DNA of 50,105 nucleotides, from the IMG/VR virus record IMGVR_UViG_2630968414_000007. One strand, 5' to 3'. Positions 45,001 through 48,000 of the stretch are shown here, piece after piece; the first letter of the stretch is position 1; every line of letters begins with the position of its first letter. The position numbers are program-made. The stretch is from a virus (lineage: Duplodnaviria; Heunggongvirae; Uroviricota; Caudoviricetes).

Positions 45001-48000
45001 GTGCACCGAAGATATTGTCAACGATTTCGTCATCGAACTGCGAGGACTCATCTTCAGTTACAAGGTGACCACAATTTTTGCAGATGGCTCCCGCGAAACT
45101 GTCAGAGCCCTGCGGCTTAAAGGATGTGTCAAAGACTTCGCCACCACATTCTGGGCAAGAAAACTTGATTGTATTCATAACCAATTTCCTCTCGAGTAAC
45201 AGACCCCTCAGAGGATACCACCTCGCCTGACGTGGTTAAAAGCAGGCAACGCTAACCACAAGGAGCCGACATGCAGAAACGAGAACCCGTCATCATCGCG
45301 CCAGACTATACCGATGATGAACTTTATGAGTGGATGCACCAGAAAATTAATGCAGCGCAGGATCTGAAATGGGCCAATGAAGCCAGGGCTAAGCAGGCTG
45401 AAAATCTGTCCGCTCTGGAGCAGGATATCACCAATCTGGAAAAAGCAGCGGCATTAAGCATTGCCAGAATGATTACATACCCGCGTTAATAGCTAACCAA
45501 CGAAGCTAAGGTTGGTAATTAAGGAGTTCTCCACGGGTGAGGTGGAGTGCGTGCGCCGGACACGGGTGAGCATACGGCACTGACAGTTTACTGAAAGGAT
45601 ATTTCCCTGAAAAGTCAGACCATAACGCGAAAGCGCACGGCGAGGTAGCTGGTTCATAGATAGCCTGTCGTTAAATTTTCGTCGACCGTGCGCTTCCGGT
45701 TGTGGCAATCCGCGAAATGGCGCGGCGGTAAGTATGGAGGGGTTATTCCTTCCCCCGTTGAGGACACCGGGTTGTCAGGTTGACCATACGCTTAAGTGAC
45801 AACCCCGCTGCAACGCCCTCTGTTATCAATTTTCTGGTGACGTTTGGCGGTATCAGTTTTACTCCGTGACTGCTCTGCCGCCCTTTTTAAAGTGAATTTT
45901 GTGATGCGGTGAATGCGGCTGAGCGCACGCGGAACAGTTAAAACCAAAAACAGTGTTATGGGGGGATTCTCTGTATCCGGCGTTAATTGTTAACTGGTTA
46001 ACGTCACCTGGAGGCACCAGGCACCGCATCACAAAATTCATTGTTGAGGACGCGATAATGGAAACGTTATTACCAAACGTTAATACGTCTGAAGGTTGTT
46101 TTGAAATTGGTGTCACTATCAGTAACCCTGTATTTACTGAAGATGCCATTAACAAGAGAAAACACGAACGGGAGCTATTAAATAAAATATGCATTCTTTC
46201 AATGTTGGCCCGTTTACGTCCGATACAAAAAGGATGCTGGCAATGAATACAGCATTTGCACTTGTTCTGACAGTTTTTCTTGTTTCCGGAGAGCCAGTTG
46301 ATATTGCAGTCAGTGTTCACAGGACAATGCAGGAGTGTGTGACTGCAGCAACCGAACAGAAAATTCCCGGTAACTGTTACCCGGTCGATAAAGTTATTCA
46401 CCAGGATAATAACGAAATCCCGGCAGGTCTTTAAAACAGTTCCGTAATAAACATCCGATTTCATTCTTATATGCCAGCAATGGCAGGGATTTGTTCACCC
46501 TTAAATCTGTAATGAGGTAAAACAAAATGAGTAAAGTCTTTATTTGCGCCGCCATTCCGGACGAACAGGCAATAAAGGAAGAAGGTGCCGTCGCTGTAGC
46601 CACTGCCATTGAAGCCGGTGATGAACGTCGCGCCCGCGCAAAATTTCACTGGCAATTCCTGGAACATTATCCGGCTGCTCAGGACTGCGCTTATAAATTT
46701 CTTGTTTGCGAGGATAAACCCGGTATACCCCGCCCTGCCCTCGATTCCTGGGATGCTGAATATATGCAGGAAAACCGCTGGGATGAGGCGTCTGCTTCCT
46801 TTGTCCCGGTCGAGACTGAATCCGATCCGATGAACGTCACTTTTGACAACCTGGCCCCTGAAGTACAGAACGCTGTCATGGTTAAGTTCGACACATGTGA
46901 AAACATCACTGTTGATATGGTGATTAGCGCACAGGAATTGTTGCAGGAAGACATGGCAACATTCGACGGCCATATCGTTGAAGCGTTGATGAAAATGCCA
47001 GAAGTTAACGCTATGTATCCGGAGCTTAAGCTGCATGCCATCGGGTGGGTTAAGCATAAATGTAAGCCTGGTGCCAAATGGCCCGAAATTCAGGCAGAGA
47101 TGCGCATCTGGAAAAAACGTCGCGAAGGTGAACGCAAGGAAGCCGGAAAATACACGTCTGTTGTTGATCTCGCCCGCGCCAGAGCCAATCAACAGCACAC
47201 TGAAAATTCAACAGGAAAAATCAACCCGGTCATTGCTGCCATTCATCGCGAATACAAGCAGACATGGAAAACACTGGATGACGAACTGGCCTACGCTCTC
47301 TGGCCTGGTGATGTGGATGCCGGAAACATTGACGGCAGCATCCATCGCTGGGCAAAAAATGAAGTTATCGACAACGGCCGCGAAGACTGGAAGCGTATCT
47401 CGGCATCAATGCGCAAACAGCCTGATGCCCTTCGCTACGACCGCCAGACTATTTTTGGCCTTGTCCGTGAACGTCCGATCGACATTCACAAAGACCCTGT
47501 GGCACTGAACAAATACATTACTGAATACCTGACTACAAAGGGCGTGTTTGAAGATGAAGGAACAAATCAGAGCGCAACTGATACTCTCTCGTCGCCAGTA
47601 CCAGAAACTGATGCAGTGGAAACGGCAATTCCGGACAACGAAAAAACCGAATGCAAAGTGGAAGTCGAACCATCTGTAGAACGTGAGGGGCCGTTCTACT
47701 TCCTCTTCACCGACAAGGATGGCGAAAAATACGGTCGCGCAAACAAACTTTCTGGTCTGGATAAGGCGCTGGCTGCCGGGGCTACTGAAATCACAAAAGA
47801 AGAATATTTTGCCCGAAAAAATGGCACATACACAGGCTTACCGCAAAATGCAAATACCGCACAAAATTCTGAACAACCAGAACCGGTAAAAGTTACCGCT
47901 GACGAAGTAAAGAAAATTATGCAGGCAGCCAATATCAGCCAGCCTGACGCCGAGGAACTGCTTGCAGTATCACGTGGTGAATTTGTTGAAGGGATTAGCG

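Follow-up and report, generated by a model that had tools for sequence, protein, structure and literature searches.

What is the long inverted repeat between dicF, a small RNA (sRNA) gene, and the cell-division inhibitor gene dicB for? The question is raised by a stretch of 50,105 nucleotides (nt) from a virus of the Caudoviricetes (IMG/VR record IMGVR_UViG_2630968414_000007), which is called the window here and to which all coordinates refer unless another locus is named. A first-pass annotation had described an 18-base-pair (bp) perfect repeat with about 110 nt inside and had proposed that the stem is an RNase III processing site that defines the DicF 3' end or controls dicB translation. We consider it likely that the repeat is the closing helix, P1, of a pseudoknotted RNA domain of about 130 nt. 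By its sequence and predicted fold, this domain is related to, but diverged from, the prophage sRNA STnc100.

The sequence TGAATTTTGTGATGCGGTG at 45893-45911 is the exact complement of 46022-46040. The repeat therefore exists with the 110 enclosed nt as first described, and with 19 nt it is one base longer than annotated. When the 19-mer was searched for with up to two mismatches allowed, only two sites were found in the 50-kb window, where 0.02 were expected by chance and none of 100 shuffled sequences gave two matches. The pairs G45892-U46041 and A45891-U46042 lengthen the helix to 21 bp. In the RNAfold structure, it reaches 28 pairs beyond a single bulged G (46043), with 45884-45890 paired to 46044-46050. 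The first-pass annotation had staked its proposal on a stable long-range structure, and the region 45884-46075 passed this check with a fold of -72.8 kcal/mol (z = -5.8, 200 shuffles). The parts of the helix are the following.

45884-45890, + strand: U-tract of the DicF terminator (45884-45888) plus AA, pairing with 46044-46050 in the read-through RNA (minimum free energy structure)
45891-45911, + strand: P1 5' arm with the perfect core 45893-45911 (repeat search, fold, covariation)
46022-46042, + strand: P1 3' arm with the perfect core 46022-46040 (repeat search, fold)
46044-46050, + strand: 3' strand of the P1 extension, UUGAGGA, with the dicB Shine-Dalgarno sequence GAGG at 46046-46049 (sequence, fold)

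The 5' arm begins 9 nt past the DicF terminator stem, and the dicB AUG lies 18 nt past the perfect 3' arm. The extension consists of three U-G and four A-U or U-A pairs. P1 could thereby cover the dicB Shine-Dalgarno sequence, which is touched by the weak U-G pairing only. In Rac-type copies of the element, the partner of the matching U-tract is an A-run immediately before the kil Shine-Dalgarno sequence, as seen from the sequences and duplex structures. For an RNase III site a helix of roughly two turns, about 20 bp or more and mostly uninterrupted, is expected; P1 has 19 perfect pairs plus two more, and up to 28 with one bulge.

The enclosed 110 nt had been regarded as a mere loop. This view was not borne out, since the spacer is a structured, conserved and pseudoknotted domain related to STnc100. 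The Rfam model of STnc100 (RF02076), whose consensus includes the long-range stem, gave a full-length match at 45881-46090 with 39.7 bits (E = 3e-6). The STnc100 consensus fold, consisting of a closing stem, a 5' hairpin, a hairpin before UCACC and the GGAGGCACC hairpin, is present in the spacer. A canonical copy was found in the same window.

34701-34873, - strand: canonical STnc100 copy, paralogue of the spacer domain (RF02076, 101.8 bits)

This copy shares the motifs GGUGAAU and UCACCnGGAGGCACCnGGCACC with the spacer. In the late region of the prophage, it is flanked by Q (36107-36802) and three transfer RNA (tRNA) genes (35650-35896) on one side and by a sialate esterase gene of the DUF1737/SASA type (32713-34563) on the other, so that one prophage contains the domain in both versions.

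STnc100, a relative of PasD, is an sRNA that prophages carry in multiple copies; it also goes by the names EcOnc27 or sRNA103 (downstream of stx2). The spacer could be read as an independent sRNA gene with its own promoter, the repeat being its terminal stem. However, the scan of the window sequence found no promoter-like site on the + strand between DicF and the 5' arm, which follows the terminator stem so closely, and no terminator after the 3' arm; the dicBF operon itself has no internal promoter (PMC10448788). Canonical members are abundant, and the copies of strain EDL933 were seen by RNA sequencing and Northern blot. Most canonical members carry a sigma70-like promoter just before the 5' arm and many a Rho-independent terminator 35-110 nt past the 3' arm (by eye, 11 of them confirmed by a classifier). 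Taken together, a stand-alone gene at this position is highly improbable.

From 5' to 3', the predicted domain is built of P1, hairpin A, a junction strand whose pseudoknot partner is the loop of hairpin C, a variable region B and the hairpins C and D.

45915-45930, + strand: hairpin A, 5-bp stem with a bulged A45927 and the pentaloop UGAGC, of which U-N-N-G-C is kept (covariation)
45935-45941, + strand: pseudoknot strand 1, CAGUUAA, pairing with 45990-45996 (UUAACUG)
45942-45978, + strand: variable region B, differing in length and sequence among copies (alignments)
45979-46005, + strand: hairpin C, 8-bp stem and an 11-nt loop, UUGUUAACUGG, that holds pseudoknot strand 2 at 45990-45996 (covariation)
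46007-46021, + strand: hairpin D, 5-bp stem CCUGG/CCAGG with the invariant loop AGGCA, stacking on the P1 3' arm (covariation)

The pseudoknot appears neither in the RF02076 consensus line printed by cmscan nor in the 2026 preprint on Pas/STnc100 RNAs.

Three other features were considered for this region and discarded. A switch by alternative pairing of GGUGA with UCACC was rejected because the bases of UCACC are engaged elsewhere in all sequences, U and C in closing hairpin C and CC in opening hairpin D. A region-B hairpin that RNAfold builds with the ACAG of the pseudoknot strand is not kept in the homologues, and the pseudoknot was favoured. Hairpin D as a boxB or CsrA site was dropped as well, since the loop AGGCA matches neither consensus.

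The fold was then evaluated by covariation in two alignments. Copies that lie directly before an open reading frame (ORF), here called the leader subtype, gave 22 distinct sequences. A joint alignment of the leader and canonical subtypes, built with a covariance model made from the leader subtype and with antisense echoes of the palindromic helix left out, contained 65. In the leader subtype, 93.4% of the cells were paired, compared to 32-41% with slid partners. Double changes occurred in 16 pairs, 12 of them among the 21 pairs of P1, and none of 500 shuffles matched the observed values. In the joint alignment, the paired cells amounted to 92.6% versus 38-48% with slid partners, and 32 of the 39 pairs showed double changes. 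Hairpins A, C and D and the inner part of P1 were 98-100% paired there. Hairpin A was paired in 100% of the cells, with three of its five pairs changed from C-G to G-C between the subtypes; hairpin C in 97.8%, with double changes in seven of the eight pairs; and hairpin D in 99.4%, with a U-A to G-C change in 19 sequences. Three loop or junction sequences were invariant while the stems covaried. The leader-based covariance model retrieved the canonical STnc100 copies at 34-59 bits.

The pseudoknot partners vary and remain complementary, as in ACUGGAU/AUCCAGU, AGGCUAC/GUAGCCU, AAGCCAG/CUGGCUU and AAGGUUG/CAACCUU. Each strand formed 6.3 bp with the loop of its own copy and 4.6 bp with the loops of other members (p = 3e-16). 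P1 is likewise held by compensatory change across genera, with the arms GUGAUGC/GCAUCAC, AAGGUGC/GCACCUU, GUGGUGU/ACACCAC and GCAAUGC/GCAUUGC. The conserved loops and the pseudoknot argue that the core does something beyond supplying a helix.

An inverted repeat may also act as DNA, and a cruciform, a protein operator or a recombination joint of mosaic prophages would come into consideration here. The minus strand folds well too, and thermodynamics alone does not settle the strand; moreover, the element lies at a module boundary, and one homologous locus (L132) joins a Qin-type 5' half to a Rac-type 3' half. The homologues, however, keep the helix with G-U and U-G pairs, which are A-C mismatches on the complementary strand. 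Such pairs are common in the + strand reading, and the leader model scored 176 bits on the + strand versus 33 bits on the - strand, therefore the structure belongs to the + strand RNA. Since the compensatory changes, the pseudoknot and the three internal hairpins all covary, a role at the DNA level can be almost dismissed.

Of 5426 complete E. coli genomes, 4642 contain the spacer, and the median copy number is two. Diverged copies (71-90% identity) lie directly 5' of several unrelated genes. The domain precedes kilR/Kil in Rac-SA53, in Stx1c and Shigella Stx phages and in others, and tciA/terB in the P1-like phages D6 and P7. In Klebsiella, Citrobacter, Scandinavium, Pseudescherichia and Shigella, it is followed by unrelated small ORFs or a Rha-like regulator. 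The Rac prophage of K-12 has the three-part order of a DicF-like terminator RNA (39.1 bits), the domain (170 bits with the leader model, 28 bits with RF02076, with a mismatch in hairpin D) and kilR. Since Rac itself carries the element before kilR, the element is not Qin-specific. Of 103 usable IMG/VR copies, 51 are followed by a gene for DicB and 18 by one for Kil. When one genome was scanned per species, about 55 family members were found across the Enterobacterales, after about half of the pattern matches had been dropped as chance hits in unrelated phyla. It is suggested that the Rfam STnc100 model misses a whole subfamily.

Could the spacer be a decaying relic of an STnc100 gene that was trapped in the operon and offers an accidental double-stranded stretch only? 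Compensatory change was observed across Escherichia, Shigella, Citrobacter, Klebsiella, Scandinavium and Pseudescherichia and in functional phages such as P7, D6, the Stx phages and mEp460, and a perfect 19-bp helix with invariant loops is unlike a decay product. The score under the Rfam threshold, the residence in defective prophages and the hairpin D mismatch in K-12 Rac would fit such a relic, to which we nevertheless give very little credence.

The length of P1 was linked to the genomic context. Its median was 28 bp where an ORF comes next (n = 66 distinct sequences) versus 7 bp in stand-alone copies that end in a terminator (n = 11, p = 3e-7), a comparison that excludes a hybrid type judged by eye (exemplified by L139) and in which the crude terminator and ORF classifiers missed some cases. 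Across the lambdoid leader copies, the duplex energy of P1 ranged from -27 to -41 kcal/mol.

The hybrid type is a stand-alone sRNA at L139 8032-8240 (+ strand), with a leader-type core and hairpin A type, a 9-bp P1 and the pseudoknot AAGGUUG/CAACCUU. Its core is directly followed by an RprA-like, seed-like stretch, UGCUGUGUGUAGUC, and a DicF-like terminator without an ORF, and it scored 43.1 bits with the STnc100 model, below the threshold. It was found at 21 IMG/VR loci, which are L139 and 20 others, among them L137, L144, L157, L172, L184, L197, L200 and L234. From these sequences, the modules (core, seed and terminator) seem to be permuted between prophages.

At the DicF position of Rac-type prophages (L136 6668-6723 on the - strand, K-12 Rac; L003 and L004 at about 1440-1500), a DicF-like terminator RNA was observed with 39.1 bits to RF00039, below the threshold. 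Over 16-17 nt, its 5' part (ACAUUGCUGUGUGUAGUCC) has the same sequence as the conserved region of RprA, an sRNA of the core genome, and by this match the RNA could be an RprA seed mimic. Two E. coli/Shigella loci (L132 501-677 and L076 3001-3172) have a Qin-type 5' half and a Rac-type 3' arm, and the next gene encodes a Rha-like regulator. Their sequence suggests recombination between prophages inside the conserved domain.

Multiple domains were also encountered. The Pantoea sp. App145 plasmid pAPP145_2 (L088, about 3097-4061), L125 (about 923-2008), L072 and L117 carry three to five STnc100-type domains on one strand. In these arrays of Enterobacterales other than E. coli, the domains are arranged in tandem or within a few kb of each other, some without recognisable 5' arms. 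In phage D6, the operon with the tciA leader contains a second, weaker domain about 1 kb further downstream (L007 2679-2793, + strand, 35.6 bits with model R1).

The neighbouring genes and elements around P1 are the following.

45620-45705, + strand: imperfect upstream hairpin of about 23 bp between ydfC and DicF (inverted repeat, fold of -37.4 kcal/mol)
45831-45883, + strand: DicF sRNA in its 53-nt form with the Rho-independent terminator hairpin (Rfam RF00039)
46058-46246, + strand: dicB, cell-division inhibitor of 62 amino acids (Pfam PF05358, 127.4 bits; RefSeq)
46243-46434, + strand: ydfD homologue, DUF1482, of 63 amino acids (Pfam PF07358, 88 bits; RefSeq)

The dicF-dicB-ydfD module proposed in the first-pass annotation was confirmed by the Rfam and Pfam scores and by the annotation of an identical chromosome. 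DicF matched RF00039 at 45832-45883 on the + strand (model positions 1-52) with 76.7 bits, above the gathering score of 48. DicB is followed by the DUF1482 protein, both past the Pfam cut-offs, and the start of the ydfD homologue overlaps the dicB stop codon. The region 45600-46530 is 100% identical to a stretch of the E. coli O157:H7 chromosome and about 97% identical in nucleotides to K-12 Qin. The RefSeq record of the identical chromosome has the same gene calls for dicF, dicB and ydfD, and there DicF is placed between ydfC upstream and dicB downstream, as in a lambdoid early-left operon. A longer dicB that begins upstream in the same frame (ORF 45953-46246) was rejected because it crosses the covarying hairpins and the hypervariable region B.

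Two 3' ends of DicF go back to Faubladier et al. 1990, as cited by PMC5069750 (Balasubramanian 2016) and PMC9438474 (a 2022 review). According to the citing passages, the 53-nt DicF is the main form and receives its 3' end from the Rho-independent terminator, whereas the 72-nt DicF is a minor species derived from read-through with an RNase III-dependent 3' end. Counted from 45831, 72 nt lead to about 45902, in the middle of the 5' arm of P1. The idea that RNase III sets the DicF 3' end thus holds for the 72-nt minor form and fails for the 53-nt main form, which ends at the terminator. The intergenic regions of dicA-dicF-dicB are counted among the classical RNase III substrates in a 2009 review (PMC2777011, citing Faubladier 1990), and the RNase III proposal for the repeat is essentially the published result of 1990.

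At the other side of DicF, RNase III generates the 5' end of a 190-nt DicF and RNase E the 5' end of the 53-nt form (PMC10448788, Ragunathan 2023). By arithmetic (45883-189 = 45694), the former lies in the 3' arm of the hairpin 45620-45705, and this predicted hairpin is probably the site of the published cut. Since the 72-nt end and the 190-nt 5' end fall in two helices, DicF is bracketed on both sides by RNase III-type helices.

How would such an element work? Transcription of the domain would require read-through of the DicF terminator by RNA polymerase, and P1 could then form. In the version inside the operon, its lengthening to 21-28 bp would make P1 a double-stranded substrate of RNase III. 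Cleavage near 45902, as implied by the published 72-nt DicF, would separate this form from the downstream RNA, and the partner cut would be expected near 46032/46033 from the usual 2-nt 3' overhang stagger of RNase III. The dicB-ydfD messenger RNA would then start about 25 nt upstream of the AUG. The core of about 130 nt would be freed with a residual P1 of 9 bp, as in the free-standing STnc100 sRNAs. Our analysis supplies the repeat, the fold with its covariation and homology, its occurrence ahead of several other genes and the correlation of P1 length with context, and the literature supplies the RNase III dependence of the 72-nt DicF; we infer the exact cut sites, the freeing of the core and whatever effect there may be on dicB expression. 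Overall, P1 is in our judgement probably a processing helix around an STnc100-type pseudoknotted domain that is lengthened in the operon.

Several points weigh against this. The RF02076 score of the spacer is below the gathering threshold of 47. Many of the aligned sequences are close prophage relatives, and shared ancestry inflates the covariation counts, an effect that is lessened by the slid controls and the cross-genus copies. The placement of the 72-nt end at 45902 relies on two reviews plus arithmetic and may be off by a few nt, and PMC10448788 places RNase III at the 5' side only, for the 190-nt species. Finally, the P1-like phages, with tRNA genes upstream, carry the leader with a P1 of 8-9 bp, therefore the long helix is not obligatory.

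It is also possible, though rather doubtful, that the domain is mainly a cis-acting regulatory leader, a sensor or a binding site for a protein or factor, which gates translation, stability or Rho-dependent termination of a toxic first gene (dicB, kilR or tciA), the RNase III cut being incidental. Three invariant loops or junctions amid covarying stems are reminiscent of ligand- or protein-binding RNAs; the ORF of the leader subtype starts 35-48 nt past hairpin D with no terminator behind, and the Shine-Dalgarno sequence adjoins the base of P1 or lies partly within it. kilR is reportedly silenced by Rho/NusG. The Shine-Dalgarno pairing, however, is weak (three U-G) and not kept in the Citrobacter, Klebsiella or P1-like copies, the same core occurs in stand-alone sRNAs without a downstream ORF, and we know of no ligand or binding partner. 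A regulatory leader is plausibly compatible with P1 being a processing helix.

One may go further. As a tentative idea, which we think rather improbable, the spacer would belong to an unrecognised class of phage RNAs, in which a pseudoknotted STnc100-type domain is placed in early operons immediately before genes for host killing or takeover (dicB, kilR, tciA, rha-like and others) and acts beyond a cutting site. It would do so either as a third functional RNA that RNase III excises or as a cis-acting gate, by factor binding, Rho, translation or stability, that times the expression of the toxic gene. If this is true, the free-standing STnc100, PasD and EcOnc27 sRNAs would consist of that domain joined to a seed and a terminator.

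The dicBF locus and its RNase III processing are known already. For an STnc100-type pseudoknotted domain that recurs as a leader and has a longer processing helix, no description was found in the searchable literature, which falls short of most subscription journals, and its novelty is therefore provisional. What is added is the identity of the stem's 'loop' as a conserved fold common to STnc100, one of the most abundant prophage sRNA families of pathogenic E. coli. The fold occurs both free, as an sRNA, and at the head of unrelated toxic genes, as their leader, in lambdoid and P1-like phages, which gives a handle on function. There is a defined pseudoknot and three invariant loops to mutate, and filamentation by DicB or KilR is an easy read-out. 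The fold may also bear on an old question, namely how kilR and dicB stay silent while remaining inducible.

The first-pass annotation had also placed the module in a prophage with a Rac-type immunity region and had taken this as mosaicism. The mosaicism was confirmed and is ordinary for lambdoid prophages, while the Rac-type label is loose. The cro-side genes belong to the YdaS/YdaT family, with 40% and 30% identity to K-12 Rac. The repressor (43684-44052) gave no BLASTP alignment to RacR and weakly resembles the C-terminus of DicA, so the Rac arrangement of a RacR-like repressor divergent from ydaS-ydaT was not found here.

The early-left operon has a relB/relE-parE type II toxin-antitoxin pair at 44075-44547 (+ strand) between the repressor gene and ydfC, in the place of the K-12 Qin genes ydfA/ydfB. 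A small zinc-binding ORF of the ECs_2282 family lies at 44978-45184 on the opposite strand. Elsewhere in the window, a sok antitoxin RNA (38812-38986, - strand, 116.9 bits) and the ALIL pseudoknot of an IS3-family element (3777-3893, + strand, 121.5 bits) were detected.

How does the locus compare with named systems? The Qin dicBF operon (ydfABC-dicF-dicB-ydfD) is alike in gene order, in the high identity given above and in the spacer with its helix. In K-12, the helix has two wobble pairs (GAUGUGGUG/CACUGCAUC), whereas the O157 helix is perfect. Further differences are the relBE pair and the zinc-binding ORF, which replace the K-12 ydfA/ydfB, and the immunity region. The Rac kilR leader, for which no published description was found in the searchable literature, shares the domain, the DicF-like terminator RNA before it and a division inhibitor gene after it. 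It differs in a 3' arm with one bulged A and one G-U pair, and Kil (phrog_294) is unrelated to DicB.

In the lambda early-left N leader, cIII and sib and in the long-range helices of ribosomal RNA (rRNA) operons, RNase III cuts a stem, which separates the products and alters the expression of neighbouring genes. The cIII site and other lambda sites are catalogued in PMC2777011. With them, the spacer shares a double-stranded stem in a polycistronic early phage transcript or, as in the rRNA operons, a long-range helix around a structured RNA. There is no sequence homology, and for the spacer the release of the enclosed RNA is so far what we infer. The closest likeness is to STnc100 itself, with GGUGAAU, the U-N-N-G-C loop of hairpin A, hairpin C, UCACC, the AGGCA loop of hairpin D and the closing stem all present. 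The stem of hairpin A is GCGGC in the spacer and CCCCC in the canonical RNA. The spacer lies inside an operon, directly before an ORF and without a promoter or terminator of its own, and its P1 extends over 21-28 bp, compared to about 7 bp in the canonical members.

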